Source: an uncultured Gammaproteobacteria bacterium (GTDB taxonomy: Bacteria; Pseudomonadota; Gammaproteobacteria; UBA9214). Taken from it: a stretch of 64,000 bases of DNA. Numbering within the stretch: the stretch's first letter is position 1; each line of letters starts with the position of its first letter. The notes under the pieces were generated by a model. That model was not told the origin of the DNA. It made no database searches and worked only from the letters and a program-made list of their open reading frames with translations. Below are positions 11,523 through 42,523 of this stretch, in pieces. The position numbers were made by a program, and so were the translations under genes. The stretch lies in assembly GCA_963748215.1 (NCBI GenBank), contig CAVVHS010000006.1:339259-403258 (forward strand). Direction: 5' to 3'.

Positions 11523-11566
11523 GTGAGGTCTCCTCGTTGGATGACGCTAATCAAAAAAAATGAAAA

Positions 11567-11863: not shown

Positions 11864-11881
11864 TATTCCGGGCTCCCTGTA

Positions 11882-12292: not shown

Positions 12293-12306
12293 TGCCGCTC
12301 TCCCGC

Positions 12307-12700: not shown

Positions 12701-12715
12701 TCACATACCCTCTGA

Positions 12716-13793
12716 TCAGAAACGGATATGGGTTGAAGCGTTCAGGCTTGCACGGGCACCACGCCAGTTGTCGATGTGGTACTTGGTGAACGGCAGCCCG
12801 GTCTTCTCGAAGAAACGCGGCCAGCCGATACGCTCGATCCAGTCGTTGATACGCTCCCAGTCCTTGGCGTCTTCCTTGTAGACCTTGAGGATCTTCTTGA
12901 CGACGGCGGTGGCTTCCGGCCAGCGCGGCGGGTTGTTCGGGATGCCGGAGGCGACCAGCTTCTGGAAGGTCGGCTTGCCGCGGGCATTGGAGTGGTTGCC
13001 GCCCACCCAGATGGCCAGCTTGGAGTGCTCGGCGTCGTTGATCTGCATCGGCGGGCAGGGCGGGTAAGCAGGCACCGCAGCAGATGCACTTCTTCTCGTC
13101 GACTTCCAGCGACGGCTTGCCGTTGACCAGTGCCGGGCGAATGGCCGCGACCGGGCAGCGTGCCACGACCGACGGACGCTCGCAGACGTTGGACAACCAG
13201 GTCGTGGTTGATCTTCGGCGGCTTGGTGTGCTGCACGTTGATGGCGATGTCGCCCTGGCCGCCGCAGTTGATCTGGCAGCAGGAGGTGGTCATGTGCACG
13301 CGGTTCGGCATGTTCGCAGCCTTTGAACTCGTCGATCAGCTCGTCCATCATCGACTTGACCACGCCGGAGGCGTCGGTGCCCGGGATGTCGCAGTGCAGC
13401 CAGCCCTGGGTGTGCGACATCATGGCGACGGAGTTGCTGGGTACCGCCGACGACGAAGCCGGCATCTGTCAGCGCCTTGATCAGCGGCTCGACCTTGGCC
13501 TCGTCGGACACCATGTATTCGATGTTGCTGCGAATGGTGAAGCGCACATAACCCTCGCCGTAGGTGTCACCGATTTCGCACAGCTTGCGCAGGGTGAACA
13601 GGTCGAGGATACGCTGGGTGCCGGCGCGCACGGTCCAGATCTTGTCGCCATTGTTGGCAACGTGCAGCAGGACGCCGGGCTGCGGATCTTCGTGATAGGC
13701 CCACTGCCCGTAGTTCTTGCGCATTACCGGGTGCATGTACTGGAATCCGTCAGGACATCCGGATTCGATCGGCGAACGCATTTCTTGTGCCAT
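12716..13793 (-). pseudogene. dsrB: DsrB, dissimilatory sulfite reductase beta subunit; >=4 frameshifts
   Basis: DsrB segments alternate between three minus-strand frames: 13290-13793 (N-terminus), 12716-13465 (SNSVAMMSHTQGWLHCDIPGTDASG, and again the C-terminus INDAEHSKLAIWVGGNHSN...), 12742-13311 (MTTSCCQINCGGQGDIAINVQHTKPPKI) and 12678-13196 (VDEKKCICCGAC). Shift points fall near 13440, 13320, 13200 and 13055. Confidence 0.8.
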
Positions 13794-13880
13794 GTGATTC
13801 TCCTGAAAATCTCTTCAAGTTTTTGAACAAATCCCGGCGTTTGTACGCCGGGGTTGTCATATATGAACGGGTTGACCGGC

Positions 13881-15147
13881 TTACGCGGAGGCAGCCTGCT
13901 CCTCGGCCTTGCGCTCGAACCACTTCTCGGCTTCTTCGTCCCAGCCGTCCATGCGGACGTAGGAAGACTGGCGCGGGTTGCTGACCATGTTCGGGTCCAC
14001 CTCGACGCCGATGCCTTCGAGGAAGTTGACCAGACCGATACGCTCGATCATTTCACCGCAGCGCTCGTGCTCCAGGCCGTTCTCGGCCCAGAAGTCGATG
14101 ATCTCCTCGGCCATTTCACTGCAGGCTTTCGTAGTCTTCCTCGGTTTCCAGCTTCTTGAACGGGACCACCACGGTACCCATCAGGTCGCCGATCTTCAGC
14201 GTGCGCTTGCCGCCGATCAGGATGGTGACGCCCTTGTCGTCGCCCGGGTGCAGCGCCTTCGGCATGACGTTCAGGCAGTGCATGCAGCGCACGCAGTTCG
14301 TGGTTGTCGACGGTCGATGGTGTCGTCGTCGTTCAGGGTCAGGGCCTTGGTCGGGCAGCGGGTGATGACGTTGTCGATCACGTACTGACGGCCTTTCTTG
14401 CCGACGTAGTCCTTGACTTCTTCCTGGTCGACCTTCATGTCGTCGCGCCAGGTGCCGATGACGGCGAAGTCGGCGCGCTCGATGGCGTTCTGGCAGTCAT
14501 TCGGGCAACCGGAGACCTTGAACTTGAACTTGTAGGGCAGGGCCGGACGGTGCACGTCGTCGGTGAAGTTGTTCACCAGCCAGCGCTGGATGCCGTGCTC
14601 GTTGGCAGCAGGACATTTCGCAGCGCGCCGCACCGACACAGGACATGGCGGTACGCACGCACGGGCCGGCACCACCGAGATCCCAGCCGTACTCGTTGAT
14701 TTCGTCGAAGAAGTGCTGGGTGTTTTCGGTGGTGGTACCGATAAACATGATGTTGCCGGTCTGGCCGTGGAAGGTCACCAGGCCGGAACCCCATTTTTCC
14801 CAGCTGTCGCCGAGCTGGCGCAGCATGTCGGTGGTGTAGTAGTTGCCGGCCGGCGGCTGCACGCGCAGGGTGTGGAATTCCTTCGATTCCGGGAAGGCCT
14901 TGCCGACTTCGGAGAAGCGCGGGATGATGCCGCCGCCATAGCCGTAGACACAGACGGTGCCGCCTTTCCAGTAACCCTTGCGGGTTTCGTAGGAGTGCTC
15001 GAGCTGACCCAGCAAACCGTTGGTGACGTCGTTGATGCGTTCGTCCGGGTGCTCGTCACGCAGCCGCTTGATGCCGGTGATGAAGCTCGGCCAGGGGCCG
15101 TTCTCGAGTTCGTCCAGCATGGGAGTCGGGTAGGTGTTCTTGGCCAT
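13881..15147 (-). pseudogene. dsrA: DsrA, dissimilatory sulfite reductase alpha subunit; >=3 frameshifts
   Basis: N-terminus in ORF 14497-15147 (MAKNTYPTPMLDELENGPW ... SCVGAARCE), the middle in ORF 14271-14675 (KFKFKVSGCPNDCQNAIERADFAVIGTW), the C-terminus in ORF 13881-14114 (IIDFWAENGLEHERCGEMIERIGL). Total span 422 codons, matching full-length DsrA. Confidence 0.85.
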
Positions 15148-15507
15148 GGCAATAATCTCCTGGATTGTTTTCTACACCAATTGGTTTGCTACTGATGACA
15201 GCGCGCGCTGTCGCCCTGCCGGGCAACTGGAAATCAGCGAGTTATACGGAATTACAACAGCGTAACTCTCAGTTGAGCGCATTGTAGAAAGGCTCTGCGG
15301 GTATACATATCCTACCCTTGGGGTGGCGCCTATATGGGCCCGTATCCCGAACGGGGTATTGGCAGAATATTGATTTAATTTCCGGTAGTTATCAGAGTTG
15401 CCCGGATTTACTAATGCGTACAGAACTTTTTCTTATATTAACGCGCACTTAAGTAACCCTTTCTCAACCGGAGAAACGGGATTGCCGGTGTGATTTCAGC
15501 TATTTAG

Positions 15508-15524
15508 ATGAGAATCACTCTCAT
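15508..15524. promoter_or_regulatory. Perfect 6-5-6 inverted repeat ATGAGA-N5-TCTCAT in the divergent dsrA / dioxygenase promoter region
   Basis: Read directly from the sequence in the AT-rich 480-bp intergenic region between dsrA (15147, -) and the 15633 (+) gene. Confidence 0.25.
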
Positions 15525-15632
15525 TAGCAATTGGCCGCCGGCAGCGCAGGCAAGTCCCGGCCCCATGTATTAAACATTTAAGTGTGACCGTAAGATACAG
15601 GCTCCTGAAAAACCGGCCCGTCGCACAACTCC

Positions 15633-16577
15633 ATGATACACAGTCCAGACAGCTTTCGACCCTTTGACCTTGCCGGCGATGCCGACTACCGGGTCTGGCG
15701 CGCGTGGAAGCTGGATGGCTACCCCGTGGCCGCCGCCGACCTGATTGTGGACGTCGGCGATCCGGCGCACCTGTCAGCGGCCGAGCATGCGGCGATCCTG
15801 GCGCGCTGCCGCAAGGCCAATATGGCGATTTATGCCGTCCGGGGTGGTGGTAGCGCGGACAAGGAGGCGGTGCGCGCACTGGGCAGGCAGTTCGGGCTGG
15901 AACGTCTGGACATGAACCTGCGCGCCGACGAGGACAGCATCACCGCGTTGCGGGTGGTACCGGAATCGGCGGGGACCCGTTACATCCCCTACACCAACCG
16001 GCCGCTGAACTGGCATACCGACGGTTACTACAACACGCTCGACGAACAGGTGCGGGCCATCCTGATGCACTGCGTGTCCGCCGCGGCCAGCGGCGGCGAG
16101 AGTGTGCTGTTCGATCACGAACTCGCCTACCTGTTGCTGCGTGACGAGAATCCGGATTACATTCGCGCGCTCATGCAGCCGGACGCCATGACCATCCCGG
16201 CCAACATAGAGGACGGCCGGCAGATCCGCGGCGCGCAATCCGGTCCGGTCTTTACGGTTGAAAAGGGTAGCAACGCCCTCCATATGCGTTATACGGCACG
16301 CACCCGCAGTATCGAGTGGAAGGACGACCGGGACGTGCGCAATGCCATCGAATTCCTGCGTGAATTGCTGGACAGCGACCTGCCCTGGATCTTCCGGCAC
16401 CGGCTGCAGGCCGGACAGGGCATTATCTGCAATAATGTACTGCACAGGCGCGATGCCTTTGACGACGCGGCGGGTGACGGACAGGCCCGGCTGCTGTACC
16501 GGGCGCGTTATCACGACCGGATCCGCGCGACCGTCGCCGACAATGATTTTTATGGAGACAGGCAATGCTGTGGTTGA
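15633..16577 (+). CDS. TauD/TfdA-family Fe(II)/2-oxoglutarate-dependent dioxygenase-like protein
   Basis: 314 aa with a His-x-Asp motif in NWHTDGYYN and overall TauD-like spacing; divergent from dsrA. Confidence 0.6.
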   Translation: MIHSPDSFRPFDLAGDADYRVWRAWKLDGYPVAAADLIVDVGDPAHLSAAEHAAILARCRKANMAIYAVRGGGSADKEAVRALGRQFGLERLDMNLRADEDSITALRVVPESAGTRYIPYTNRPLNWHTDGYYNTLDEQVRAILMHCVSAAASGGESVLFDHELAYLLLRDENPDYIRALMQPDAMTIPANIEDGRQIRGAQSGPVFTVEKGSNALHMRYTARTRSIEWKDDRDVRNAIEFLRELLDSDLPWIFRHRLQAGQGIICNNVLHRRDAFDDAAGDGQARLLYRARYHDRIRATVADNDFYGDRQCCG

Positions 16578-16756
16578 GCGAAGTGCTGATACAGCAGCAT
16601 GACATCGAGTCCTTCGAGGCCCTGAAGCAGGCCATCAGCGCGCGTGCGCGCGGCGGCGAGATCCATTTCCGCATGGATGTGCGTCCGCCGTTTCCCGATA
16701 CACCCGAAGACTGGGAAGACCGGCTGGAAGCGGCCTTCTACTCGACAGGCAATTAA
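16565..16756 (+). CDS. Small hypothetical protein (63 aa), translationally coupled
   Basis: Start overlaps the preceding stop by 13 nt and the next gene starts 13 nt after its stop; coding-like codon usage. Confidence 0.35.
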   Translation: MLWLSEVLIQQHDIESFEALKQAISARARGGEIHFRMDVRPPFPDTPEDWEDRLEAAFYSTGN

Positions 16757-16768
16757 CCCCGGCGGTCA

Positions 16769-17467
16769 ATGACAAGCATGTTCTGGAACGACGAAAAGCA
16801 GAAAGCACCGGACTTCGTGATCCCGGATGACGTCGTCGACCTGGCGTTCAGGATCGGCTGCCCGACACTGCCGCTGGATCACGCCCATGCCCTGTCGCGA
16901 GCCCTGCTCGAGGTCCTGCCCTGGCTGGATGACGAGCCGCATGCCGGCGTCCACCTGATTCACGGTGCCGCCTCCGGTAACGGCTGGTATCGCCCCGAGG
17001 ATGCCGCCAGCGAGCTGCTGCACCTGTCGCGGCGTACCCGCATGCGCCTGCGTGTGCCCAGGCATCGCCTGGAGGATGCGCGCAAGCTGACCGGCCGGCG
17101 GCTCGATATCGGCGGCCATCCGCTCGAAGTCGGCGACTCGGAGGTTTTCCTGCTGAGCAGCCTGTCGACGCTGTTCTCGCGCTACGTCATGACCGGGGCC
17201 GACACCGATGAACAGGCCTTCCTGGAGGAGGCCACGCGTGGGCTGCAGGCCATCGATATCGATTGCCGCAAAATGCTGGGGGGCATCAGCCATGCTCTGC
17301 AGTTCCCGGACGGACCGGTACACACCCGCAGCCTGATGGTGGCGGATCTCGAGCCGGAGCAGTCGGTGCGACTGCAGCAGCTCGGACTGGGCGAGGGGCG
17401 CAGCATCGGCTGCGGCCTGTTCCTGCCGCACAAGGGCATCAAGCCGGTCAACGACGCAAAGGAATAG
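16769..17467 (+). CDS. Hypothetical protein with a Cas6f(Csy4)-like Gly-rich C-terminal motif (EGRSIGCGLFLPHKGIKP)
   Basis: 232 aa. The C-terminus resembles the Csy4 G-rich loop (EGGFTCYGLSKGGFVP) and the N-terminus DLAFRIGCPTLPLDHAHAL resembles DIRLRPDPEFPPAQL. There is no CRISPR array or other cas gene in the window, and the family assignment is not verified. Confidence 0.45.
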   Translation: MTSMFWNDEKQKAPDFVIPDDVVDLAFRIGCPTLPLDHAHALSRALLEVLPWLDDEPHAGVHLIHGAASGNGWYRPEDAASELLHLSRRTRMRLRVPRHRLEDARKLTGRRLDIGGHPLEVGDSEVFLLSSLSTLFSRYVMTGADTDEQAFLEEATRGLQAIDIDCRKMLGGISHALQFPDGPVHTRSLMVADLEPEQSVRLQQLGLGEGRSIGCGLFLPHKGIKPVNDAKE

Positions 17468-17694
17468 CCTTGTCGGTCAGGCGCTGTCCCGGGCGAGGCC
17501 TGCCATTCCGGTGTTGCGCGATAAATACCTGCCCGCGCGGCTGAGACCCGCCAGGACAGCCGGCAAACCGTCGTATAAGGAAACGCACTTCGGCCGGCTT
17601 CCCATATGGGATATGTTCGGTGCTCGGGCAACTGGCTATAGTTGCGCTTATTCAATAATTTACAACGACTTGACTCGCATCCGGAGAGAAGATC

Positions 17695-17898
17695 ATGAGC
17701 AATAAACAGGAACTGATCGCCAAACTGCTGGAAATGCAGAAGAAATTCATCGATTACGAGCATGCCAATGGCGTGGAGATGAAGGACTACTTCGCCGCCG
17801 ATGAAGGCCATCCACTGAAGGGCTTCCGCCAGGAATACACGGACCTGGCTAACCAGCTGGTCGACATCGCGCACACCGAAAAGGGTTCGCATCGCTAG
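17695..17898 (+). CDS. Small hypothetical protein (67 aa)
   Basis: ORF with an upstream AT-rich promoter-like region, followed by a strong terminator. Confidence 0.4.
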   Translation: MSNKQELIAKLLEMQKKFIDYEHANGVEMKDYFAADEGHPLKGFRQEYTDLANQLVDIAHTEKGSHR

Positions 17899-17914
17899 TC
17901 AGGCGTAATAGCAA

Positions 17915-17951
17915 TAAAAAGCCGCATTCCGAAAGGGTGCGGCTTTTTTTT
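17915..17951 (+). terminator. Rho-independent terminator
   Basis: Hairpin aaaaaGCCGCAttccgaaagggTGCGGCtttttttt. Confidence 0.6.
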
Positions 17952-18187
17952 GGCGTGACCTCTAAGGCCAGTAGCGGCCACAGAGGGCACAGAGTACACA
18001 GAGAAAAATCAAATCAGAAAATGCCTGGCCGACACTCGGCACCTTTGTCTGCAGGCGGCCGGGTTACCACCGGAATCCCGTGCCTTGCACCGCTGGTGAC
18101 AGCTTACGCGGAAGATATGAAATAATTCTGTGAGCTCCGTGTTCTCTGTAGCGACTGTTTATTGAATGACGGCTTGCCCGTCCGGAG

Positions 18188-18532
18188 TCAGTACCCGCCC
18201 TTGCGCAGGATGAATGGCAGACCGGCGATCCGGTTACCCTGCTTGCTGGGGGCGAAGGGGAACAGTTCAAAGAGTTCCTTGCTGCTGACTTTCTTGTCCC
18301 AGATCTTGGCCATGCTCTTGTTGATCACCCGCTCCATGGGCTGTGAGCCGTTGTTATCGAAGTATTCCGAGCGCAGGTAATTCAGTACATCGAAATGCGC
18401 CTCGGTCAGCTCGATACCTTCCTTGGCGGCCAGTGCTTTCGCAACATCCTCATCCCAGGCGGTCGGGTCGGTGAGATTGCCGTTCTCATCCAGTTCGATG
18501 CTCTTGCCGTTTACGTCCAGTGCCATTTTCAT
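18188..18532 (-). CDS. DsrC/TusE-family paralog lacking both conserved cysteines
   Basis: 114 aa: MKMALDVNGKSIELDENGNLTDPTAWDEDVAKALAAKEGIELTEAHFDVLNYLR... aligns with DsrC along its length, but the C-terminus is SKQGNRIAGLPFILRKGGY rather than AKQACKYAGLPKPTGCV. Confidence 0.7.
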   Translation of the reverse strand: MKMALDVNGKSIELDENGNLTDPTAWDEDVAKALAAKEGIELTEAHFDVLNYLRSEYFDNNGSQPMERVINKSMAKIWDKKVSSKELFELFPFAPSKQGNRIAGLPFILRKGGY

Positions 18533-18740
18533 GCTCCTGATTCAACTTGAGAAAAGAATTTTGAGGCGGAATTGTATTGCAATACAGCCGTCATCGGAAG
18601 AGGTGCGAACACGACCCGGTATGCATTTTACAGGCATTCCACAGGGTATTTTCCCGTGCCACAACGCCTGGACGATGTCTTCAGGGAAGCCGGATGTGCG
18701 GATAAAATACCCGTTCCGAAAATTGATCGATGGCTGACAC

Positions 18741-19250
18741 ATGCGTATTCGGGAATTCACCCTGCCAGACCCGGCGGCACTCAACGAGCGTCTGTATGCC
18801 CGGTTTCTGGAATTATCCGGCACCGACCGGATCAGGCAGACCCATCATTTTGCCGGCCGTTTCGAGAACACCTACATCGCCGCGGCTGACATACCGGAGA
18901 TTGCCGCGGTTCTGGATGTGTTCCGGCAGCAGGCCGCGCAGTGGCTGGACGTTGCCGCGGATACGCTGAAGGCCGGGTTCTGGTTTAACGCCATGGGACC
19001 GGGGCACGTGACTTCACCGCATCACCACGACGAGAACGACGAGCTCCTTTCGGCGGTGTACTACATCCGCGTACCCGCAAACTCCGGCGAGTTGATCCTG
19101 TACGACGACGATACGCCGGTCACCGTGCGGCCGGAAGAAGGCAAGCTGGTGATGTTCGGTCCTGATGTGATGCACGAGGTGACGGTCAACAACAGCCCGG
19201 AGCTGCGCCTGTCTGTCGGCATGAACATCGGGCCGGCTGATGCGGAATAG
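18741..19250 (+). CDS. 2OG-Fe(II) oxygenase superfamily protein (TIGR02466-like cupin)
   Basis: 169 aa with HHHDENDELLSAVYYIRVP ... MHEV, a H-x-D...H facial-triad pattern. Confidence 0.5.
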   Translation: MRIREFTLPDPAALNERLYARFLELSGTDRIRQTHHFAGRFENTYIAAADIPEIAAVLDVFRQQAAQWLDVAADTLKAGFWFNAMGPGHVTSPHHHDENDELLSAVYYIRVPANSGELILYDDDTPVTVRPEEGKLVMFGPDVMHEVTVNNSPELRLSVGMNIGPADAE

Positions 19251-19337
19251 CCGGTTGGTCAAAATCTCTCACGGCGATTTCGTCACTAACGCCCAACCCA
19301 GGCAACGGGAAAATATTTCACCTGTTTGGTATGGGCG

Positions 19338-20057
19338 CTATTTCTTTCCTCCCTCCAGTCGCCCCCCCTGCTGAAGCCATTGGGCCACCAGCCAGCAGGC
19401 GGCGGCCCAGGCCGCTCCGGCCGCCCAGCCGGCCAATACATCGCTTGGCCAGTGAACCCCGAGATAGACGCGACTGACACCGACCAGCAACGTAGCCAGC
19501 ACAGAGCAGCCGATCAGGTAGATCCGTACCCTGCGCGCGGCGTGTGCCACCGCCAGCAAGGCGCCGCCGGTGAGATAAACCACCGCCGACAGCATCGAAT
19601 GGCCGCTGGGAAAACTGGATGTATAGATCATCGAACCGTGAGCCACCAGGTCCGGGCGTGGCCGGTCAAAACCGTTCTTGAGTGCCAGGCTCAGCAGCAG
19701 GCCACCCAGTATCGCCGACAGTACGAACAACGCGACCCGCGGCAGACCCTGTAGCCAGAGGTAGCCTATCGAAACCAGGGTGAGCAGGCCGAGCACCCCG
19801 ATACCCCCCAGGGCCGTGAAGTCACGGAACATTTCCTCCACCCAGGCAGGGCCCAGCGGGTCGCCGGGGTCCCCTGGTACGCGCGTCGCCAGCAGCAGCC
19901 ATCGGTCGAGCCGCGCGGTGTCGCCTTCCAGCATCTCATCGGCGATGCCGATAAAGGCGAATAATCCAAAGCCGAAAATCAATAGTGCCAGCGAGGCAAA
20001 ATGATGCCGGGCGAATAGTCTGGGAGAGACAGAAGCCGTTTTTTGCTTAGCACTCAC
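19338..20057 (-). CDS. PAP2-family membrane phosphatase
   Basis: KxxxxxxRP (GFDRPRPD), PSGH and SRVYLGVHWPSD motifs with several TM helices. Confidence 0.7.
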   Translation of the reverse strand: MSAKQKTASVSPRLFARHHFASLALLIFGFGLFAFIGIADEMLEGDTARLDRWLLLATRVPGDPGDPLGPAWVEEMFRDFTALGGIGVLGLLTLVSIGYLWLQGLPRVALFVLSAILGGLLLSLALKNGFDRPRPDLVAHGSMIYTSSFPSGHSMLSAVVYLTGGALLAVAHAARRVRIYLIGCSVLATLLVGVSRVYLGVHWPSDVLAGWAAGAAWAAACWLVAQWLQQGGRLEGGKK

Positions 20058-20188
20058 CTGGCATTACCCCTGAAATAAAAGGGCCAGAAACATTTTCTGA
20101 ATTGGCATCAGTAAAATTCTGTGTGCTCTGTGCACTCTGAGGCAGGTTATTTGTATTTTCCCTGCGCCTCCGCGCGAGACAGGGTTTC

Positions 20189-20860
20189 TCAGACATCCGA
20201 CCACATGCGCACCAGGTTGATGTAGGACTGGTTGACCTGCACGGTTTCCGCTGCGTCCGGTCTATCATGCAACAATACCTCGCGTGCCTGGTTCAGGTCG
20301 TGCAGCAGCGCGCGGCGGTCGGGTTCGCGCACCAGGCTCTGTATCCAGCTCACGGCGACCAGGCGTTCGCCGCGGGTGACTTCGGCGACGCGGTGGATGC
20401 TGGAGGAGGGGTAGATCACGGCGTCGCCGGCCGACAGCTTGACCTGCTGGTCGCCGAACGGGGTCTGGATGCATAGCTCGCCGCCATCGTAGTCCTGCGG
20501 TTCATTCAGGAAGATCGTTACCGACACATCGGACCGGTACAGGTCACCCTGGCCCATGATCGGGTCGTCGACATGATTACCGTAGGCCATGCCGGGCAGG
20601 TAGCGGGCGTAGTAGGGCGTGGCGGTCTTGCGTGGCATGGCTGCGCTGCGGAATACCGCATGCCGGACCAGGCTGCCCATCACCAGGTTGTTGAGTTCGC
20701 TCATGCGTGCCGGGTCCAGCGCCAGTTCCTCGTTCAGCTTGACGCGCCGTGCCGCCGTACCGGCAGAGCCGCGGCCGTCACCGAAGCGTCCGCCGGCGAT
20801 CAGCCGTTCGACGGTATTGAGTTGCGAGCGGTCGAGCACGCCCTCTATACGGGTGAGCAT
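20189..20860 (-). CDS. PKHD-type hydroxylase (YbiX-like Fe(II)/2OG oxygenase)
   Basis: 223 aa; MLTRIEGVLDRSQL start and HxD...H motifs typical of YbiX/PiuC. Confidence 0.7.
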   Translation of the reverse strand: MLTRIEGVLDRSQLNTVERLIAGGRFGDGRGSAGTAARRVKLNEELALDPARMSELNNLVMGSLVRHAVFRSAAMPRKTATPYYARYLPGMAYGNHVDDPIMGQGDLYRSDVSVTIFLNEPQDYDGGELCIQTPFGDQQVKLSAGDAVIYPSSSIHRVAEVTRGERLVAVSWIQSLVREPDRRALLHDLNQAREVLLHDRPDAAETVQVNQSYINLVRMWSDV

Positions 20861-20941
20861 GAATCAGTCCTGCAGCCGGTGGCGGGTATGCGGTAACATA
20901 AACACGATACAGTCAGTGTAACCAAAATCAGGGCGCTAATC

Positions 20942-21265
20942 ATGATTCTGAACGTGGTGGTGGAGGAACAGGTCTATCCGGTCAAGGTGCCGGATATGCT
21001 GATCAACGAGGCAGGTGACTTCTTCGACAAGATGGATGCCGACATGGATAAGGGCTGGCAGATGAGTCGCGACTGGGTGGATAACCCGACCCTGGAACAA
21101 CGCTGCCAGATCGTCGGTGACAAGATGCTCACCGCCATGCACCAGGACAACAAGAAGATGCTGCTGCTGCTGTCCGCCTACATCCTCGCGCGGGCGCCGG
21201 GCGTGACCGGCATCCGTATCGATAGCAATGGCGAGATGCTGGAAACCGAGCTGGTGACGGACTGA
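20942..21265 (+). CDS. Hypothetical protein (107 aa)
   Basis: ORF only. Confidence 0.4.
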   Translation: MILNVVVEEQVYPVKVPDMLINEAGDFFDKMDADMDKGWQMSRDWVDNPTLEQRCQIVGDKMLTAMHQDNKKMLLLLSAYILARAPGVTGIRIDSNGEMLETELVTD

Positions 21266-21292
21266 GTGCACTGACTGCCGCGTAGACTGCCC

Positions 21293-21676
21293 ATGGCCGA
21301 CCTGTTTTCCGTTACCGCGCCCTTACTGATCCGTTATCCCGATGGCCACCGGCACATCATGCTGGAACGCTTCGCGTATGGCCCGGGCCATGCCCGTAAT
21401 AATGGCTCGGCTTCTCCGGCGGGACTGGTCTATTTCCGACCGTTCTGGGACCGGCTGGGTGAGGAGGGCATTTGCCTGGTGCAGGGCGAACTGCGCGGTG
21501 ACGGGCCATGGAAGGTCGGTGCCGCGGTGATCACGGTGCTGGGCTGCCACGGCAGCGATCCCGTCGAGGCTGCCGAGTACGCCGACTGGCTGCTGCATCG
21601 CGAGCAGCTCGCCGACAACTACCCGGATCGTGAAACGCTACGGGACATGGCACGCAGTGCCGGTTACCTGCCCTGA
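21293..21676 (+). CDS. Hypothetical protein (127 aa)
   Basis: ORF only; paired with the preceding gene. Confidence 0.4.
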   Translation: MADLFSVTAPLLIRYPDGHRHIMLERFAYGPGHARNNGSASPAGLVYFRPFWDRLGEEGICLVQGELRGDGPWKVGAAVITVLGCHGSDPVEAAEYADWLLHREQLADNYPDRETLRDMARSAGYLP

Positions 21677-22119
21677 GCGGTGCTGCCGCCGAACCGCTTG
21701 CTCATTTTCACGTGGGCGATACGGTTGAACAGCGTGTGTCCGGCGCCATCCACCGCATAACCCTGCTTGCGATAGAAGCCAAGCGCGGTTTCCCGTGCAT
21801 CCAGTACGATGCGTGCGGCGCCCAGTGCGCACGCCCTGTGCTCGAGCGCATGGAGCAGCCGGCTGCCGAGACCGCTGCGCTGCTGCGCTACCTCGACCGC
21901 CATGAAGCGGATCTGCGCCTCGCGGATGGTGTTGAAATGCAGGCGTCCCACGGCCAGCGGCTTGCCGCCGTCATCGACCAGCATGAGATGGGTGCTGCCG
22001 GCATCCTGCGCATCGCACTCGCTGCCGCGTGGCTGGTCCCAGGGCGCGCGCAGGATGCGCCAGCGCAGGTCGTAGTATCGCCGGTACTCGTCGGCGCTGG
22101 TCGGCTCGATGAGGCGCAT
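21664..22119 (-). CDS. GNAT-family N-acetyltransferase
   Basis: QRSGLGSRLL...GFYRKQGY acetyl-CoA-binding motif. Confidence 0.7.
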   Translation of the reverse strand: MRLIEPTSADEYRRYYDLRWRILRAPWDQPRGSECDAQDAGSTHLMLVDDGGKPLAVGRLHFNTIREAQIRFMAVEVAQQRSGLGSRLLHALEHRACALGAARIVLDARETALGFYRKQGYAVDGAGHTLFNRIAHVKMSKRFGGSTAQGR

Positions 22120-22139
22120 GCCGGGCCGGGTGCGGTTGC

Positions 22140-22752
22140 TCAGGCGAACACGACCCAGGTAGTGGCGATGTACTTGACGCCCTGCTCGAGTCTGGCGCCA
22201 CGGTGTTCGTGGGTCCAGAACGGCGGAAACAGCAGCAGCTTGCCGGCCTCGGGCTGAATCTGGACGTCCTGGCAGGAAAACTCGGTGGCCCCGCCGGGGC
22301 CGGGCACATCGTTCAGGTACCAGACCGCCACCAGCTGGCGCTGGCTGAAATCGTGGCTGCCGCCGTCGATGTGCCAGTGATAGAACTCGCCGGGCAGGGT
22401 GCGCTGGATGGCATAGCCGCTGTCCTTGAATGGGCCGCCGAAAAAGGGATAGGCATTGCGGAATTCCTGGATGGCCCGTCCCAGCGACCGAAACAGCTCG
22501 CGATCGATGTCCTGCCAGTGTTCCTTGCCGCTGACCACCAGGTCGGTCGAGCGCTTGATGTCGCGTTCCTGCTGCACGGTCTGGCCGACGCGGCCGGGAT
22601 ACTGTTCATCCGTGCGTTCCTCGAAGCGGCGGATCATCTCGTTGCATATGTCGAGCGGCAATGCGCGTGGCTTCTCGAAGATGAAACTCAGCGGCTTTAC
22701 CTCGCGGAGAGTGGTCAGTGGCGCGGTCGGTGCCGTAGCGGATTGTTTCATG
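22140..22752 (-). CDS. 2OG-Fe(II) oxygenase superfamily protein (TIGR02466-like), second copy
   Basis: FYHWHIDGGSHDF ... FPPFWTHEH. The track ORF runs to 22817; the likely start is MKQSATAP. Confidence 0.55.
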
Positions 22753-22771
22753 ACAGTCGGTGTCTGCGTGG

Positions 22772-23857
22772 TCAGAGCTGGTTCGATTCGATGGTGGCGA
22801 TGAGTTGCTGCCGGCACCCGGTGCCTTGCCGGTCGAACAGGTCAAGCAGCTCGCCGGCCAGTGTCGTCCAGTGCGCCGCCGAGCGGTCAGAGAGTTGCTC
22901 GAGTTCACGGGTATTCCCGGTAATCGTCCAGATCTCGTAGGCGGCGAGCAGTTGCGGAAACAGTTCCTTGCGCATGCTGGACAGGCTGCCGATGTAGCAA
23001 TGCAGTGTCGCCGGGTTGTTCTCCGCCAGCAGGCCGGGCAGCGTCGAAAGCGCGTCCGCCAGGTGATCGCGCACGGCGCGCAGCATGATCTCCTCCCTGC
23101 TGTGGCCGAGTCTCACCAGCATGTCTTCCCAGCCGGGACCGAGCAGTTTGCCGGCCTGCACCTCGCCGATCTCGTGCAGCATCACCGTGTTCAGCTCGCT
23201 GTCGGTCATCGCCTCGAGCGATTCGTCCGGTGCGTTCTCGAAGTCATAGCACTCGAGGGCGTGCTGCATGGCATTGGCCGGGCGGTTCCAGCGCCATTCC
23301 TCGAGTCGTTCCCACAGCATCCTGCGCAGCGACTCGCGACGGATGAAGATGGTGCCGTCCAGGCTCATGGCCGGCGGCGCAGCGAGGTCGCGCGCCAGCT
23401 CCCGGCCGGATACCAGCAACTGGTAATCATCACGTTGCCGGTGGACCTCGAGCGTGCCCATGAAGAACACCGGCTTCATGCCGGGACCGTAGCCGCTGCT
23501 GTAGACATACCCGAGCGGATTCAGCACGGCATTGATCGCGGCGCTATCGAAAGGACTGAAGCGTTCATTGCCGACCGGTATATTCTCGAAGCGGCTGTGC
23601 TCGAGGCTGTCCCAGTGCGTCTCGCGCCGGGTCAGCCAGTCGGTCAGCTGGTCGTGCGGCAAGGCGGCCCCGAACGGCAGGCCGTGTTCCCAGCGAAAGT
23701 ACTCGCGCATCTTGAGCAGGTAGACGCACAGGGTGTAGTTGGTGGCGAATTGCGCATCGGAGATATGGCAGTTGGTGCGCACAGCACCGAGCGTCGGCAT
23801 CAGTGCGCTGATGTCGGCTGCTGCTGCGAATGGACTGGGTCTGCCGTTGGTCTTCAC
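22772..23857 (-). CDS. Hypothetical protein (361 aa)
   Basis: Long ORF with coding-like composition; overlaps the downstream gene start (translational coupling). Confidence 0.5.
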   Translation of the reverse strand: MKTNGRPSPFAAAADISALMPTLGAVRTNCHISDAQFATNYTLCVYLLKMREYFRWEHGLPFGAALPHDQLTDWLTRRETHWDSLEHSRFENIPVGNERFSPFDSAAINAVLNPLGYVYSSGYGPGMKPVFFMGTLEVHRQRDDYQLLVSGRELARDLAAPPAMSLDGTIFIRRESLRRMLWERLEEWRWNRPANAMQHALECYDFENAPDESLEAMTDSELNTVMLHEIGEVQAGKLLGPGWEDMLVRLGHSREEIMLRAVRDHLADALSTLPGLLAENNPATLHCYIGSLSSMRKELFPQLLAAYEIWTITGNTRELEQLSDRSAAHWTTLAGELLDLFDRQGTGCRQQLIATIESNQL

Positions 23858-23900
23858 ACTCGTTACCCTGATAATTCCGCTGTTTTTTCTATGCTAGCAT

Positions 23901-24521
23901 GTGACATTATGCCTCGCCATTATCATCGTCTGGCAGCCAGGACGGGGCGGCAGGAGAGCCGGTGTGAGAGTCAAGAGCAAGTGGAATATCAAGGAACGGG
24001 AACGCAGTCTGGCCGAGATCGGCGGCGCGGCAGCGTTTATCCTGTGGCGCATTGCGCAGCAGGGTACGCTCAACCTCGAGAACGAGGGCTTCCAGACCGA
24101 CACCAACGCCCAGCGCCTGGATATCATCGCGGAGTTTGTGGCTTTTCTGGTGCACATGGCCGACCGGCTGAAGGCCACGGAGCTGGACCAGACGCAACGC
24201 CAGGAATTCATCACTTCGCTGGCGCGTCACCTGGCGGACCAGGTGCAGGACAACCGTACCGATGCGCAGGGCAAGGGAGAATACCGGCAGGCGTTTATCG
24301 AACTGCTCAACTCACGTACCGCGGACTACGCCGAATTTACCATGGTGGATGGCGAGCCCGGCTACGCCCTGAAACGCTACTTCGGGGAGAACGTGCGCGC
24401 CGTGATGGGCGAGAAGGACAACAAGTGGATCACCGACCAGGTGATGGAAATCGAGTTGCCCGAGGCGATGACACCGCTGCGCAAGGCGCTGCGCGAGCTG
24501 TTTGCGCGCCCGGAGACATAA
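23901..24521 (+). CDS. Hypothetical protein (~190-206 aa)
   Basis: ORF; possible GTG start near 23961; followed by a terminator. Confidence 0.45.
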   Translation: MTLCLAIIIVWQPGRGGRRAGVRVKSKWNIKERERSLAEIGGAAAFILWRIAQQGTLNLENEGFQTDTNAQRLDIIAEFVAFLVHMADRLKATELDQTQRQEFITSLARHLADQVQDNRTDAQGKGEYRQAFIELLNSRTADYAEFTMVDGEPGYALKRYFGENVRAVMGEKDNKWITDQVMEIELPEAMTPLRKALRELFARPET

Positions 24522-24549
24522 AAAAAGGCGGGGCAGGCCCGCCTTTTTC
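24519..24549. terminator. Bidirectional rho-independent terminator between convergent genes
   Basis: aaaaaaAGGCGGGgcagGCCCGCCTttttc. Confidence 0.55.
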
Positions 24550-24567
24550 AGTTCGACCCCGCGGGGT

Positions 24568-24762
24568 CTATTTTTTCCACTCGCCGAAGTTGTCGGCGTT
24601 GTGCGCCTTGCCGTCTTCGTAGCCGGCGGAGTAGGCGTCGGTGACACGCTGCTCTTCACGCTCCGGGTTCAGCAGGTAACCGCCCTGCCAGCCCTGGATG
24701 TAATCCGGGTCGACGCCATTTTCTTCCATCTTGGTGACTGCGTTGTAGTATTCCTGGTTCAT
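24568..24762 (-). CDS. Small hypothetical protein (64 aa)
   Basis: ORF ending at the bidirectional terminator. Confidence 0.35.
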   Translation of the reverse strand: MNQEYYNAVTKMEENGVDPDYIQGWQGGYLLNPEREEQRVTDAYSAGYEDGKAHNADNFGEWKK

Positions 24763-24820
24763 CGTTGCTTCCTCGTCTCGGTCTATGTTTGGGTTGAAAG
24801 GGTTGCCGCCGCGCGCCTGT

Positions 24821-25951
24821 TCAGCCGCGTGCCGCCGTAAAGTGTGACAGTGCTGCCCCCGAATCGATTGCCGCTGCTACCGCTGCCGCCGCGTCCTCGA
24901 GGGTGGCGTGGCGGCGCAGGTGATGCAGCATGATGGCGGCGCCGTAGACCAGGCTGTCACGTGCCGCGCCCGGTATTCCCTGCAGTGCGGACAGGCCGGC
25001 CGCTGCCGCAGCCTGCGCCGCTGCCGCGCTGTCGAATGCTGCTGTGTCACTGCCTTCGATGGTGTCCGGTGCATTGTCCTGCGGGAGCGGGACAGTGCGG
25101 GTCTGCTGCACGATACCGATCATTTCGGGGTGTACTTCCTGCGGGTATTCCGCGCCGCCGTCATGATAGCAGAATACCAATGCCGGTTGTTTCAGCGAGG
25201 GAATGACGCCGCCCTCGACGCCGCGAATGATGGCCGCCGAGGCGAAGCCGGCGTGGCGCGCCAGCTGCGCATAGACCGGCGGATAGGCCTTGTGCACATA
25301 GCCGGTCATCAGATGGGTACGTGCGGCACCGCGCACCGGTCCGGTCAGCGTTTCGACCGTGGTCAGGACCGGTCGCTTCACGATGCGGGTGCGCAGCGGG
25401 ATCAGGTCATGCAGGCGGGGCGCGGAGTGCTTCTGGTCCACGTAGCCCCAGCCGATGGCGGGGTCGGCGATCCGGGCGGCAGCCTGTTGCGGGGAGAGGT
25501 CGACCTCGACGCCGGCGGCACGCAGTACCTTGCGGTGCGTGACGCCATACTTCGGGCCGACGGCTTCCAGGCCGTGCGTGACGGCCGGTACACCGCAGGC
25601 GGCAAATACAGCCGGCAGGAAGGGCGACATCGGCAGTCCACGCGTGTAACCGTCATAGGGATCGGCCACGTCGATGAGTTCGTCGACGGCGGCGGTGACC
25701 GGGTTCATGGTGTCGAGAATGGCCTGCAGTACGCCGGCGTTCTCCGCGTCGGTCTCGCGCTTCATGCGCAGGGCGATCAGCAGCACGGCCGCCTGAACCG
25801 GATCCGATTTTCCTTCCAGGATGTGACGCATGGCGGCATAGGCCTCATCGAAGGGCAGGTCCTTGCTGAACTCCGGGCCGGTCGCCACCTTCTGGATGCA
25901 GCTACGCATCAACAGGTCGGTGTCGCTCCCGCTTATCATCCGTGCCGCCAT
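24821..25951 (-). CDS. TrpD2/YbiB-family protein (anthranilate phosphoribosyltransferase-like, glycosyl transferase family 3 fold)
   Basis: 376 aa with TrpD-like N-terminal helical and alpha/beta domains. Not in a trp operon context. Confidence 0.65.
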   Translation of the reverse strand: MAARMISGSDTDLLMRSCIQKVATGPEFSKDLPFDEAYAAMRHILEGKSDPVQAAVLLIALRMKRETDAENAGVLQAILDTMNPVTAAVDELIDVADPYDGYTRGLPMSPFLPAVFAACGVPAVTHGLEAVGPKYGVTHRKVLRAAGVEVDLSPQQAAARIADPAIGWGYVDQKHSAPRLHDLIPLRTRIVKRPVLTTVETLTGPVRGAARTHLMTGYVHKAYPPVYAQLARHAGFASAAIIRGVEGGVIPSLKQPALVFCYHDGGAEYPQEVHPEMIGIVQQTRTVPLPQDNAPDTIEGSDTAAFDSAAAAQAAAAAGLSALQGIPGAARDSLVYGAAIMLHHLRRHATLEDAAAAVAAAIDSGAALSHFTAARG

Positions 25952-26193
25952 AATACTTCGCTAGCTTGTTGTTTCAATTGGATTTACAGTCGAGTCGAGG
26001 AGTATACAGGAGGGTAAATTGACCCCGTATATCCCGATGGAGAGAGTAATGGCAGTCCTGAGTTGCGTTGTATCCATATGAAAATCGTAGACATTCTCTC
26101 TTTAGAGGTATTCGATACCGAGCTGCGAATGACTAGCATAGACACTCTCTCATCCCGGTGCGTCCGGGAAATCCACGACCCAAGAGGCAGTGC

Positions 26194-26628
26194 ATGGCAG
26201 ACGAGCTGAACAGTTCCGACTATAGCAGTGGAGTGGCCGCATTCGAGGCCAAGAATTTTTCCCAGGCGATGCGGCTGCTGTCGCCGCTGGCGGATGCCGG
26301 CGATGCCGATGCGCAGCACCGCGTGGCGATCATGTGCCAGAACGGTCTCGGCATGGTGCGTAACGAACTCCGCGCCTACAAGATGATGAAGGCCGCTGCC
26401 GAGCAGGGTTACGCGATCGCCCAGCACGGTCTCGGCTTCATGTACCTGGAGGGCGAGTGCGTCGAGCAGGACAGTGCCAGGGCGGCCGAGTGGTTTCGCA
26501 AGGCGGCCGACCAGGGGCTGGCGGGTTCGCTCACGACCCTGGCCCTGATGTACGAACAGGGTAACGGTGTCGAGAAAGACCCGGATGAGGCGAAGCGGCT
26601 CTATGCCAGGGCCGGGTTTGACCTCTGA
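26194..26628 (+). CDS. Sel1-like (TPR-like) repeat protein
   Basis: Repeated AQxxLGxMYxxGxGVxxDxxxAxxWxxKAA Sel1 motifs. Confidence 0.6.
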   Translation: MADELNSSDYSSGVAAFEAKNFSQAMRLLSPLADAGDADAQHRVAIMCQNGLGMVRNELRAYKMMKAAAEQGYAIAQHGLGFMYLEGECVEQDSARAAEWFRKAADQGLAGSLTTLALMYEQGNGVEKDPDEAKRLYARAGFDL

Positions 26629-26637
26629 CGCGGCCGC

Positions 26638-27792
26638 TTGCTGAGCGGAGCGGCCTACATGGACCTGACGGCGGAAGACGACCTGCGGGTGAACGTACTG
26701 CTGGCCGGCACGCTCAAGGCCGTGCGCATCGACGAATCCAAGATGACGCTGCATGCGCTGTCCGACAAGGGTGAAGCGAAGATCCAGCTGAATCCGAACT
26801 GTCGCGACGAATCCTACCTGCGGCGCGTGCGTGAGACCCTGTCCAGCCACGTGCTGGGTTCGCCGGGCGGATACCCGGTTTACCTGAAGCGCTGGACGCG
26901 CATGGGCCAGGCGCGTGACAGCATCCTCGAATCGCTGTTGCTGCTGGGCGAGCCCGAGGCGGTGGTGGCCGTGGTCAATGCACCGGGTATTACCGATGAA
27001 ATCGCCAGTCGCGCCTGGTGGGCGTCGCAGAATTCCGAGAACGCGCGCTGCATGCTGCGCCAGGAGGCGGTGATGGAGGGGCGCATGGGGCCGGTACTGG
27101 CGCAGTTTCTGCTCGAATTCCTGCCGTTCGAGGAAGAGGCGCGGGATCAGATCCGCTCGGTGCAGCTGGTGCTGCAGGGGGAGCTGATCGATGCCGCGGA
27201 ACGGCAGTGCCTGTGGGAAAAGGGCAAACACCGCAACGCGTTCCACGTCGGCTTCCTGCAGGCCCTGCCTGATGATCTGCCGGACGAACAGGCGCCCGGC
27301 CCGGCCTGGGAGCAGGTGGGACGGGCAGTAGCGGCTCTCATGCCGGTGGGCAATCCGTTCGCCATGCAGTTGTGCCGCCTGCTTGGCCCGGCGGGTCAGG
27401 CGTTTCTTGCCACTGTCGAGAGTGTGCTGAAGAAACCGTCCAATCAGGACGTCGTGGTCGAGTTGATGCACGCACTGGCAGCCCATGCGCGCGACCTGCC
27501 TGTCCCGCGAACGCGATTCACCCGTGTCGATGAAATCAGCGCGGTCGTGGATCAACTGCTCGCCGCTGCCGGGCAGGGCGATCCCGCATGGCGGGATCTC
27601 GCGGACGTATTGCAGGAATTGCCAGGCAATGTGCATCATATCCGTGCGATGCTGTTTCTTGGACTGCTGGATGAGCCGCTGCTCGATCCGGTGTTCGCGG
27701 GGACCGACGCGATCGGTTCGGTCATGCGCAAGAAGCTCGAACCGGTCACCGGGCCCATGCTGCAGCAGATCGCAGTTCTCAGGGGTTTGTAA
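26638..27792 (+). CDS. Hypothetical protein (384 aa)
   Basis: ORF. The antisense track ORF 25984-27639(-) is judged spurious. Confidence 0.5.
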   Translation: MLSGAAYMDLTAEDDLRVNVLLAGTLKAVRIDESKMTLHALSDKGEAKIQLNPNCRDESYLRRVRETLSSHVLGSPGGYPVYLKRWTRMGQARDSILESLLLLGEPEAVVAVVNAPGITDEIASRAWWASQNSENARCMLRQEAVMEGRMGPVLAQFLLEFLPFEEEARDQIRSVQLVLQGELIDAAERQCLWEKGKHRNAFHVGFLQALPDDLPDEQAPGPAWEQVGRAVAALMPVGNPFAMQLCRLLGPAGQAFLATVESVLKKPSNQDVVVELMHALAAHARDLPVPRTRFTRVDEISAVVDQLLAAAGQGDPAWRDLADVLQELPGNVHHIRAMLFLGLLDEPLLDPVFAGTDAIGSVMRKKLEPVTGPMLQQIAVLRGL

Positions 27793-27810
27793 TCAACAAG
27801 GGAATGCCAG

Positions 27811-28071
27811 ATGGTAGATATACGTATGTACTGCACCGCCTTTTGTCCCTATTGCGTGCGTGCGGAGATGTTGCTCAAGTCAAAGGGCGTGATGGATATC
27901 GACAAGATCTTCATCGACAACATGCCGGACGGGTTCCAGGAACTGTCCAGGCTGACCGGGCGCAGGACGGTGCCGCAGATCTACATCGGCGAGCAGCATA
28001 TCGGTGGCTATGATGATCTCGCCGCGCTGGACAAGCGTGGCGGGCTGGATCCGCTGCTGGCGACGGACTGA
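27811..28071 (+). CDS. grxC: Glutaredoxin (Grx3-type, CPYC active site)
   Basis: YCTAFCPYC ... TVPQIYIGEQHIGGYDDL. Confidence 0.8.
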   Translation: MVDIRMYCTAFCPYCVRAEMLLKSKGVMDIDKIFIDNMPDGFQELSRLTGRRTVPQIYIGEQHIGGYDDLAALDKRGGLDPLLATD

Positions 28072-28095
28072 TTCACCGCGCGGACGCAGAACAAC

Positions 28096-42447: not shown

Positions 42448-42523
<76 letters not shown>

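Follow-up and report, generated by a model that had tools for sequence, protein, structure and literature searches.

In a 64-kb stretch of DNA from an uncultured gammaproteobacterium (contig CAVVHS010000006.1; the whole stretch is hereafter called the window), a segment dense in Fe(II)/2-oxoglutarate (2OG) oxygenases lies between a dsr operon and the grxC and cysG genes (positions 15633 to 25951). Our analysis makes it fairly probable that this segment is a conserved, vertically inherited "upstream arm" of the reverse Dsr locus and constitutes an O2-, Fe-, and 2OG-dependent accessory or regulatory layer of reverse Dsr. Reverse Dsr is the main route by which environmentally abundant sulfur oxidizers oxidize the sulfur they have stored, and its regulation and accessory proteins are poorly known. 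What had been a "tauD-like gene upstream of dsrA" becomes a defined five-gene operon together with a promoter/operator region and ~7 orphan families, which also provides a hypothesis for the presence of O2-dependent hydroxylases beside an O2-independent pathway in aerobic sulfur oxidizers. The arrangement of the first gene, dsrQ, was known already; what appears to be new is the operon encoding a Cas6-like protein (Cas6L) and a cysteine-less DsrC paralog (DsrC'), the architecture of the promoter, the set of co-conserved orphans, and the fold of a DUF6866 protein.

The gene map of the window was obtained by GC3-guided calling of open reading frames (ORFs), followed by Pfam and NCBIfam profile searches; raw ORF lists were noisy in the window (GC content, ~61%), and the GC3 filter yielded a clean gene map (Table 1). 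Relatives were sought with a Cas6L alignment as the query, each species being represented by a single genome. They were found in 203 species, the best 80 loci were fetched, and gene order in these loci was established by tblastn with the window proteins. Presence counts use only loci with enough flank (50 or 52 informative loci).

This analysis uncovered that the segment is syntenic beside dsrAB in about 80 species representatives. The fetched loci are gammaproteobacterial throughout and include Thiohalobacter thiocyanaticus, Thioalkalivibrio denitrificans, Thiogranum, Acidiferrobacterales, and many unnamed Gammaproteobacteria; among the lineages are also many uncultured sediment and soil clades. 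An exact-match lookup placed the same population on a contig of a metagenome-assembled genome (MAG; L001, 99.6% identity), and two more contigs, with 74-82% identical Cas6-like proteins, have a gene order identical to that of the window. The near-universal order starts with dsrB-dsrA and the divergent dsrQ-s63-Cas6L-DsrC'-s67, continues with ybiX (minus strand) and h107 (plus), sometimes then h127, and proceeds through GNAT, a prolyl 4-hydroxylase (P4H)-like gene, and DUF6866 (all minus), h206 (plus), and an Alvin_2107-family gene (minus), sometimes with TrpD2, to a Sel1-repeat gene, a 384-aa orphan, grxC, and cysG. The four genes of this last group, which form the right flank, are co-conserved with the segment. 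Oxy169, TrpD2, h127, and PAP2 are the variable genes (Table 1); of these, only PAP2 and Oxy169 are regarded as accessory.

The identities of all families drop in step with Cas6L identity (r = 0.74-0.95), and exactly the same distribution is seen for seven families that are otherwise orphans. Synteny and correlated divergence together indicate that the segment is vertically inherited and co-conserved. Distant loci with rearrangements again have the DUF6866/h206 pair (L087, where h206 stays next to its partner) or ybiX (L088) near the dsrQ operon, which argues for functional coupling and not for inertia alone. An earlier, sequence-only reading of this DNA had named single scattering of the genes in relatives as a sign that it was wrong; instead, they form a co-conserved set, and its recurrence beside dsrAB in independent species-level genomes goes beyond chance.

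The operon divergent from dsrA opens with dsrQ. A tauD-like gene upstream of dsrA has been given this name and is typical of (facultatively) aerobic chemotrophic sulfur oxidizers, according to Lenk et al. 2012 as cited in PMC7596348. The TauD-family gene of the window, directly upstream of and divergent from dsrA, matches the published dsrQ as that citation presents it, a gene of uncharacterized function. Part of the neighborhood already stands in public environmental clone sequences, as is evident from "uncultured bacterium ws034A6," which has a DUF6866 homolog (UniRef I1X587). Beyond what the citation describes, dsrQ is here the head of a five-gene operon (with s63, Cas6L, DsrC', and s67) inside a larger co-conserved set. 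The sequence-only reading had called O2-dependent hydroxylases beside an anaerobic-type sulfur operon unusual; this was overstated, since the cultured carriers include Thioalkalivibrio and Thiohalobacter and dsrQ is typical of aerobic oxidizers.

An alignment of 66 homologs revealed that DsrQ conserves WHTDGYY, the distal His, and an Arg, that is, the HxD...H triad for Fe(II) and the Arg that binds 2OG. Its best scores against NCBIfam equivalogs are 33-45 bits, vs cutoffs of 268-415, and the models concerned are BBOX, TmpA, and TMLD, not TauD; the nearest PDB entry is TmpA (6npb), with an E value of only 1e-3. DsrQ thus shows no equivalog-level similarity to a characterized enzyme and is only remotely related to true TauD. 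The next gene, s63, is highly conserved end to end in the alignment, with zero family matches in Pfam, NCBIfam, or PDB. Its 13-nt overlap with dsrQ suggests translational coupling, and Cas6L begins 12 nt after it.

Cas6L scores above the curated Cas6 thresholds of both Pfam and NCBIfam. Its relatives begin with MFWND, so the start in the window is likely at 16778. A search of PDB matched the type I-B Cas6 8fcj_B (E = 3.3e-17), and the secondary structure reads beta-alpha-beta-beta-alpha-beta twice, which corresponds to two RNA recognition motif (RRM)/ferredoxin-like domains. The AlphaFold2 model is modest (predicted local distance difference test score [pLDDT], 60), and its top Foldseek matches are exclusively Cas6. 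The C-terminal G-rich loop typical of Cas6/Cmx6 proteins (type I-B/I-MYXAN) is intact (GLGEGRSIGCG) and conserved family-wide as GLGxGRxxGCG. In addition to this GxGxxxxxGCG loop, the family-wide invariants are His38, His62, Arg89, Arg95, Arg138, Lys168, and an NGW-x-RP insertion, and they are consistent with nucleic acid binding. In contrast to known Cas6 proteins, Cas6L has an insertion of ~10 residues with the invariant NGW-x-RP and the lineage-specific residues His38, His62, Arg89, and Arg95. With regard to possible catalytic residues, His38 lies where helix 1 starts; it shows 95% conservation, and the solved I-B Cas6 has Asn at this position.

The second difference from Cas6 proper is genomic context. 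CRISPR arrays are absent from the 64-kb window and from 84 of the 85 related loci, and the single flagged locus (L062) holds merely a 3-copy tandem repeat with an 81-nt period, not a CRISPR array. No cas genes occur within 10 kb in about 85 loci, where the neighbors all belong to non-cas families. We therefore rejected the possibility of a CRISPR remnant. An exhaustive search of representatives of 50% identity clusters retrieved 989 clusters at an E value of ≤1e-3 and 179 at ≤1e-30. Selected members of 36-50% identity keep dsrAB followed by divergent dsrQ, a small ORF, a 225-aa gene or DUF6967, Cas6L, and DsrC'; indeed, every Cas6L context inspected, down to 36% identity, is linked to dsr and not to CRISPR. 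Public records name these proteins "type I-MYXAN CRISPR-associated Cas6/Cmx6," and "CRISPR-associated" is probably a misleading label for this subfamily. A large Cas6-derived family of ~180 clusters (50% identity, E ≤ 1e-30) probably lies outside CRISPR and is probably misnamed systematically in annotation. Our literature search, of limited reach, found no paper on a dsr-linked Cas6 and nothing relevant on DUF6866, Cmx6, or dsrU.

In some relatives, an extra conserved gene of ~225-235 aa lies between s63 and Cas6L (L037, L042, L043, L049, L056, L061, L078, L087, and L088), and in L086 a DUF6967 gene (7772-7993) takes its place. The extra gene is absent from the window, and its product has no Pfam family and no PDB relative.

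DsrC' belongs to the DsrC/TusE/RspA family by profile (Table 1) and is 45% identical to the canonical DsrC encoded at 11187-11522. It retains the family fold, the GLP hinge, and the C-terminal arm, but it contains no Cys anywhere: its C-terminus reads ...KQGNRIAGLPFILRKGGY, vs ...KQACKYAGLPKPTGCV in the canonical copy, so both redox cysteines of DsrC (CysA, penultimate, and CysB, ten residues upstream) are missing. The arm, GLP-x3-RKGGY, is 1-2 residues longer than that of DsrC, with KPTGCV replaced by RKGGY, which is ≥95% conserved in 81 DsrC' sequences. Cysteine-less members of the DsrC family are named as the RspA type in PMC8477390, and DsrC' belongs with them by its absence of cysteines.

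Two subtypes of DsrC' differ in position. In most lineages, DsrC' and s67 follow Cas6L on the same strand, and the subtype ending in ...GLPES[MR]RKGGY lies directly after Cas6L. In the clade of the window, DsrC' is inverted and paired with Oxy169, and the corresponding subtype (type-B, ...GLP[FY][IV][LA]RKGGY) always adjoins Oxy169, even in the distant L060. Oxy169 is a clade-level addition (16 of 50 loci) that keeps HHHD...H in its homologs. Having a swinging arm without the sulfur-carrying Cys and standing repeatedly beside oxygenases, DsrC' may be a substrate for modification, or a competitor or modulator at DsrC-binding sites. The second small ORF of the operon, s67, is conserved along its length in the alignment and has no family match in Pfam, NCBIfam, or PDB.

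Upstream of the operon, the spacer between dsrA and dsrQ is ~470-540 nt in most loci and harbors a hexamer, TAnAnT, and two palindromes. On the dsrA strand, the hexamer reads TAGACT, TAGAAT, TACAAT, or TAAAAT and sits upstream of the dsrA ATG at a median distance of 145 nt; palindrome 2 starts 61-63 nt from the hexamer in 58 of the 61 loci. This tripartite element is kept even where Cas6L is only 36-50% identical. With this fixed spacing, a sigma-70-type dsrA promoter, of which TAnAnT is the probable -10 box, would have the palindromes near positions -44.5 and -76.5, as putative operator or activator sites. The palindromes occur nowhere else in the window, and thus no wider regulon was seen in it. 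An AT-rich conserved block at ~15430-15460 reads TCTTATATTAACG..GCACTTAA in the window and TTGAATATTATCA..GCTTAT in Thiogranum/Thiohalobacter-type loci, where it forms a near-palindrome with a loose resemblance to iron-regulator boxes; the block may belong to the dsrQ promoter.

Beyond the core operon, the segment encodes further oxygenases. All four Fe(II)/2OG oxygenases proposed by the sequence-only reading, at 15633, 18741, 20189, and 22140, gave profile matches, and all keep HxD...H and the 2OG-binding Arg (29-73 homologs aligned per family); judging by these residues, they appear to be active. The reading's TIGR02466-like label is fair for Oxy169, which scores 46.7, below the cutoff of 62.5. 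The label does not hold for the 22140 gene (Oxy203), which has no TIGR02466 match and whose nearest PDB entries are viral and Bacillus P4Hs (5c5t and 3itq). The ORF of Oxy203 reaches 22817, but its first 22 residues are unconserved, so the start is probably 22751; two motifs, HWHIDGG and FWTHEHRG, are invariant in it. By profile, the 20189 gene is an equivalog of YbiX, with the PKHD C-terminal domain and an intact triad. P4Hs, to which Oxy203 is nearest, act on proteins. Oxy203 and the 20189 gene resemble the P4H/PKHD (YbiX/PiuC) protein hydroxylases, the difference being that they are fixed in a dsr neighborhood; ybiX of E. coli sits in an iron-uptake context.

DUF6866, the P4H-like oxygenase, and GNAT are co-operonic, and each is of an enzyme type for which peptides or proteins can be substrates. 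The AlphaFold2 model of the DUF6866 protein (pLDDT, 90) has a predicted fold that is dipeptidyl-peptidase-III (DPP III)/PolE-like; searches for a sequence-level relative and for a Foldseek match returned none. Sequence identity to DPP III (M49) and to SnPolE (Fe2+/pterin dependent) is only 10-12%, and DUF6866 is much shorter than DPP III and lacks the canonical HExxGH motif. Its invariant His/Glu clusters suggest that it is probably a mononuclear-metal enzyme. Among the accompanying ORFs, h107, which has an invariant GWQMSR..W..RC motif, and h206 have no PDB or Pfam relative, and the less widely conserved h127 has no significant family or PDB match. The 64-aa ORF matches the Alvin_2107 equivalog profile over its full length.

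The other gene assignments of the sequence-only reading fared similarly. PAP2, GNAT, the TrpD2/YbiB homolog, and the cysteine-less DsrC paralog were confirmed by profile matches and, for the last, by the count of zero Cys, each in the place where it had been reported, and the three ORFs of 63-67 aa were reproduced (63, 67, and 64 aa). Of the ORFs that it left without a family (at least six hypothetical ones and the three small ones), h107, h127, h206, s63, and s67 are indeed orphans; Cas6L and DUF6866 have families, and the 64-aa ORF belongs to Alvin_2107. Neither of the two outcomes that it had named as counting against it, genes scattered singly in relatives and oxygenase assignments failing profile searches, was seen.

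Table 1. Features of the segment and its flanks, with coordinates in the window, supporting matches (scores vs cutoffs where given), and presence among informative loci
Feature	Position	Strand	Evidence	Presence
Left flank: dsr operon dsrABEFHCMKL and further genes	345..15147	-	TIGR02064 dsrA match; tblastn with intact L002 Dsr proteins	dsrA 50/52
dsrA/dsrQ shared divergent control region	15148..15632	.	conserved blocks, also in distant loci L086-L088	
TAnAnT hexamer (TACAAT)	15281-15286	-		TAnAnT in 61/61
Palindrome 1, CCTACCCTTGGGGTG	15311-15325		in spacer	
Palindrome 2, TATCCC-N4-GGGGTA (across loci, TATCCC-N4-GGGATA)	15343-15358		in spacer	
dsrQ, TauD/TfdA-family Fe(II)/2OG oxygenase, 314 aa	15633..16577	+	PF02668 85.9 bits, E 5.7e-24	50/52
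s63, conserved 63-aa ORF	16565..16756	+	overlaps dsrQ stop by 13 nt	52/52
Cas6L, Cas6/Cmx6-family protein	16769..17467	+	PF09559 E 1.8e-64, 217.7 bits vs 26.7; TIGR02807 143.3 bits vs 98.85	
s67, conserved 67-aa ORF	17695..17898	+		47/50
DsrC', DsrC/TusE/RspA-family paralog without cysteine	18188..18532	-	PF04358 E 9.3e-32, 110 bits; TIGR03342 94 bits vs 53.5	49/50
Oxy169, small 2OG-Fe(II) oxygenase, 169 aa	18741..19250	+	PF13759 48.7 bits, E 1e-12	16/50
PAP2-family phosphatase	19338..20057	-	PF01569 E 1.3e-24	0/50 other loci
YbiX/PKHD-type Fe(II)/2OG hydroxylase	20189..20860	-	NF003974 242 bits vs 143; PF13640, PF18331 (PKHD_C)	48/50
h107, 107-aa ORF divergent from ybiX	20942..21265	+		46/50
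h127, 127-aa ORF	21293..21676	+		24/50
GNAT acetyltransferase, last gene of DUF6866-P4H-GNAT operon	21664..22119	-	PF00583 E 3.4e-13	42/50
Oxy203, P4H-like Fe(II)/2OG oxygenase, 203 aa	22140..22751	-	PF13640 48.4 bits, E 1.9e-12	47/50
DUF6866/Sfum_1244-family protein, 361 aa	22772..23857	-	PF21739, PF21740; NF045620 451 bits	48/50
h206, 185 aa from likely start, divergent from DUF6866	23964..24521	+		49/50
Alvin_2107-family small protein, 64 aa	24568..24762	-	NF049856 "globule sulfur oxidation protein," 111 bits vs 60, full length	39/50 (some loci end before reaching the gene)
TrpD2/YbiB-like protein	24821..25951	-	PF02885, PF00591; all NCBIfam equivalogs below cutoff	14/50
Right flank: Sel1-repeat protein, 384-aa orphan, grxC, cysG (siroheme synthase)	26158..29496	+	family matches; synteny	

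The results described above (gene identities, catalytic motifs, the Cas6 fold, the lack of CRISPR, conservation together with dsrAB, and a promoter-like architecture) let us infer how the upstream arm might work. The core operon (dsrQ, s63, Cas6L, the Cys-less DsrC', and s67), divergent from dsrAB and sharing with it a control region of ~0.5 kb, is accompanied by second-tier modules that travel with it (ybiX/h107; DUF6866-P4H-like-GNAT/h206; Alvin_2107; and Sel1, the orphan, grxC, and cysG), and the layer so formed would adapt the Dsr machinery, itself O2 independent, to an oxic life. Protein or peptide partners encoded alongside the oxygenases would be hydroxylated by them, and the RKGGY arm of DsrC' as well as the conserved small proteins are the best candidates. 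DsrC', unable to carry sulfur, would modulate DsrAB, DsrEFH, or DsrK, or else the dsr promoter, and the Cas6-derived protein would contribute RNA binding or processing, or serve as a scaffold. The link to sulfur is drawn because the cluster and its flank contain a DsrC paralog, an Alvin_2107 family member, and cysG, the source of siroheme for DsrAB. Siroheme, made by cysG, is a cofactor that DsrAB requires. That small proteins linked to dsr might be modulators is reasonable in view of a precedent: DsrD is a small dsr-linked allosteric activator of DsrAB in sulfate reducers (PMC8794893). Like DsrD, a small, conserved protein that is encoded at the dsrAB locus and tunes the enzyme, s63, s67, and DsrC' might act by analogy, although they have no sequence relationship to DsrD, which belongs to the reductive pathway.

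Several points weigh against such a layer. Every locus was found via Cas6L, so the co-occurrence is conditional on Cas6L, and the counts describe loci sampled in this way rather than how common the set is among dsr-bearing genomes. Related Gammaproteobacteria can retain synteny in genes that share no function, and the second-tier modules are absent as a block from Thioalkalivibrio (L081 and L082). The window's own dsr genes are frame-changed, which means that the dsr link is not arguable from this genome alone. As for an RNA partner of Cas6L, there was no Rfam match and no structured RNA in the spacer, and the downstream intergenic regions are unconserved. In addition, the nearest characterized relatives of DsrQ (TmpA and BBOX) act on small molecules, and the oxygenase sequences give no substrate that can be read from them.

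A bolder version of the upstream-arm proposal is tentative and lies on the unlikely side. A CRISPR endoribonuclease would have been exapted for energy metabolism, and Cas6L, the Cys-free DsrC', and DsrQ would together form an O2-responsive ribonucleoprotein or regulatory device that controls or matures reverse Dsr, with the P4H-like, YbiX-like, and DPP-III-fold enzymes hydroxylating or processing the small co-conserved proteins within this circuit.

It is plainly unlikely that the arrangement reflects neighborhood inertia, in which unrelated housekeeping or stress genes became lodged between dsr and cysG within a single gammaproteobacterial lineage, where no reshuffling has separated them so far. 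This would fit the restriction of all fetched loci to Gammaproteobacteria, the block loss of the second tier in Thioalkalivibrio, the variability of TrpD2, h127, Oxy169, and PAP2, and the fact that YbiX and GNAT are widespread families. However, the dsrQ operon stays glued to dsrA at 36-50% Cas6L identity, even where everything downstream has been replaced by unrelated genes. The reappearance of the DUF6866/h206 pair and of YbiX after rearrangement and the shared distribution of the seven orphan families likewise speak against inertia, as do the DsrC paralog and the Alvin_2107-family gene, which tie the set to sulfur oxidation.

We regard it as improbable that DsrQ is a true TauD-type sulfonate dioxygenase whose release of sulfite from taurine-like organosulfonates feeds Dsr, Apr, or Soe, with the neighbors being unrelated. 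DsrQ is indeed a TauD/TfdA member by Pfam, one distant locus (L088) has a gene of the TauE sulfite-exporter family close to the cluster, and the idea appears as literature speculation on dsrQ, as quoted in PMC7596348. Nevertheless, DsrQ falls far below the equivalogs, with its best partial matches to BBOX, TmpA, and TMLD (TmpA, E = 1e-3). Moreover, dsrQ appears to be translationally coupled to s63 and Cas6L and is co-conserved with DsrC', and the cluster has no conserved gene for a sulfonate transporter or an aminotransferase.

Less probable still is the proposal that the spacer palindromes are RNA stem-loops that Cas6L recognizes or cleaves, thereby exerting posttranscriptional control on the dsr or dsrQ transcripts. 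The Cas6 fold, the G-rich loop, and the invariant His38 with many invariant Arg and Lys residues are what such a role would call for, and the motif co-occurs with Cas6L in distant loci. A stem of 6-7 bp with a 4-nt loop, as the palindromes would form, resembles the substrates of Cas6e and Cas6f. RNAalifold on the spacer gave -7.4 for the plus strand vs -0.2 for the minus strand, with many G-U pairs. However, single-sequence folding of the spacer is no better than that of shuffled sequence on either strand, the G-U excess in the hairpins is mainly the inherited state of one clade, and C-A mismatches also occur. The rigid spacing of 61-63 nt between the palindromes and TAnAnT, which is promoter/operator architecture, would put them upstream of the dsrA transcription start and is more in keeping with DNA sites. 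The spacer is therefore unlikely to hold a structured RNA, and DNA sites for an operator or activator are more likely than an RNA substrate of Cas6L.

As regards horizontal transfer, GC content across 15-26 kb is 0.55-0.64, similar to that of the flanks and the rest of the window. Core chromosome surrounds the segment (the dsr operon, grxC-cysG, uvrC, dinB, gltX, glnS, and tRNAs), and no integrase, tRNA, or insertion sequence element was seen at its borders in Pfam, NCBIfam, and Rfam scans. With this flank-like composition, the lack of mobility genes, the core-chromosome context, and synteny with correlated divergence in ~80 species, the horizontal acquisition suggested by the sequence-only reading was rejected, and the distribution is not patchy save for the PAP2 gene. 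The small ORFs, which it had proposed to compare with precursors of ribosomally synthesized and posttranslationally modified peptides (RiPPs), have no precursor-family match and are conserved end to end, and the cluster has no exporter, protease, or leader peptidase; the peptidase-like fold of DUF6866 is the sole hint of a RiPP cluster. It is thus highly improbable that the segment is a horizontally acquired stress island or a small-molecule or RiPP tailoring island, despite its many tailoring-type enzymes (oxygenases, GNAT, and the peptidase-like fold), its small ORFs, and the recent insertion of PAP2, given that it has no compositional anomaly, mobility genes, tRNA border, exporter, or precursor-family match and has diverged vertically as a set. 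Of the stress-response, modification, or small-molecule tailoring island once envisaged, a theme of protein or peptide modification remains plausible, and the island, horizontal, and RiPP parts fall away. That interpretation was therefore partly right, in that the module is real and co-conserved.

Within the segment, PAP2 alone has the look of a recent acquisition. It was found only in the window and in L001, of the same population, and is absent from the 93-95% identical L006. Its insertion of ~0.9 kb (19241-20146) is specific to this population.

In the left flank, dsrA, dsrB, dsrE, dsrK, and dsrL (6840-15147, minus strand) each span 2-3 frames relative to intact orthologs, with single-base gaps at, e.g., 14608, 14315, 14296, 14118, 13438, and 13316; dsrF, dsrH, dsrC, and dsrM are intact. 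The flagged segment has zero indels relative to the 99.6% identical L001. The frame changes are either a local assembly or strain-mixing artifact or true dsr decay in this strain. In the right flank, the 384-aa ORF has no family or PDB match.

Three MAGs labeled "Halobacteria archaeon" carry a typical gammaproteobacterial dsr/dsrQ locus with a Cas6L identity of 72-73% (L016, CAWKAE010000011.1; L027, CAVYIJ010000017.1; and L028, JABDRC010000157.1), which points to misbinning or wrong taxonomy. At gathering thresholds, Rfam found only tRNAs and RtT elements across the window, all outside the segment. Downstream of gltX and glnS, positions 42448-43111 hold two tRNA genes and, after them, a tandem repeat (169-nt unit, 2.9 copies), and this repeat matches the RtT RNA family twice (61 bits vs a gathering score of 45).

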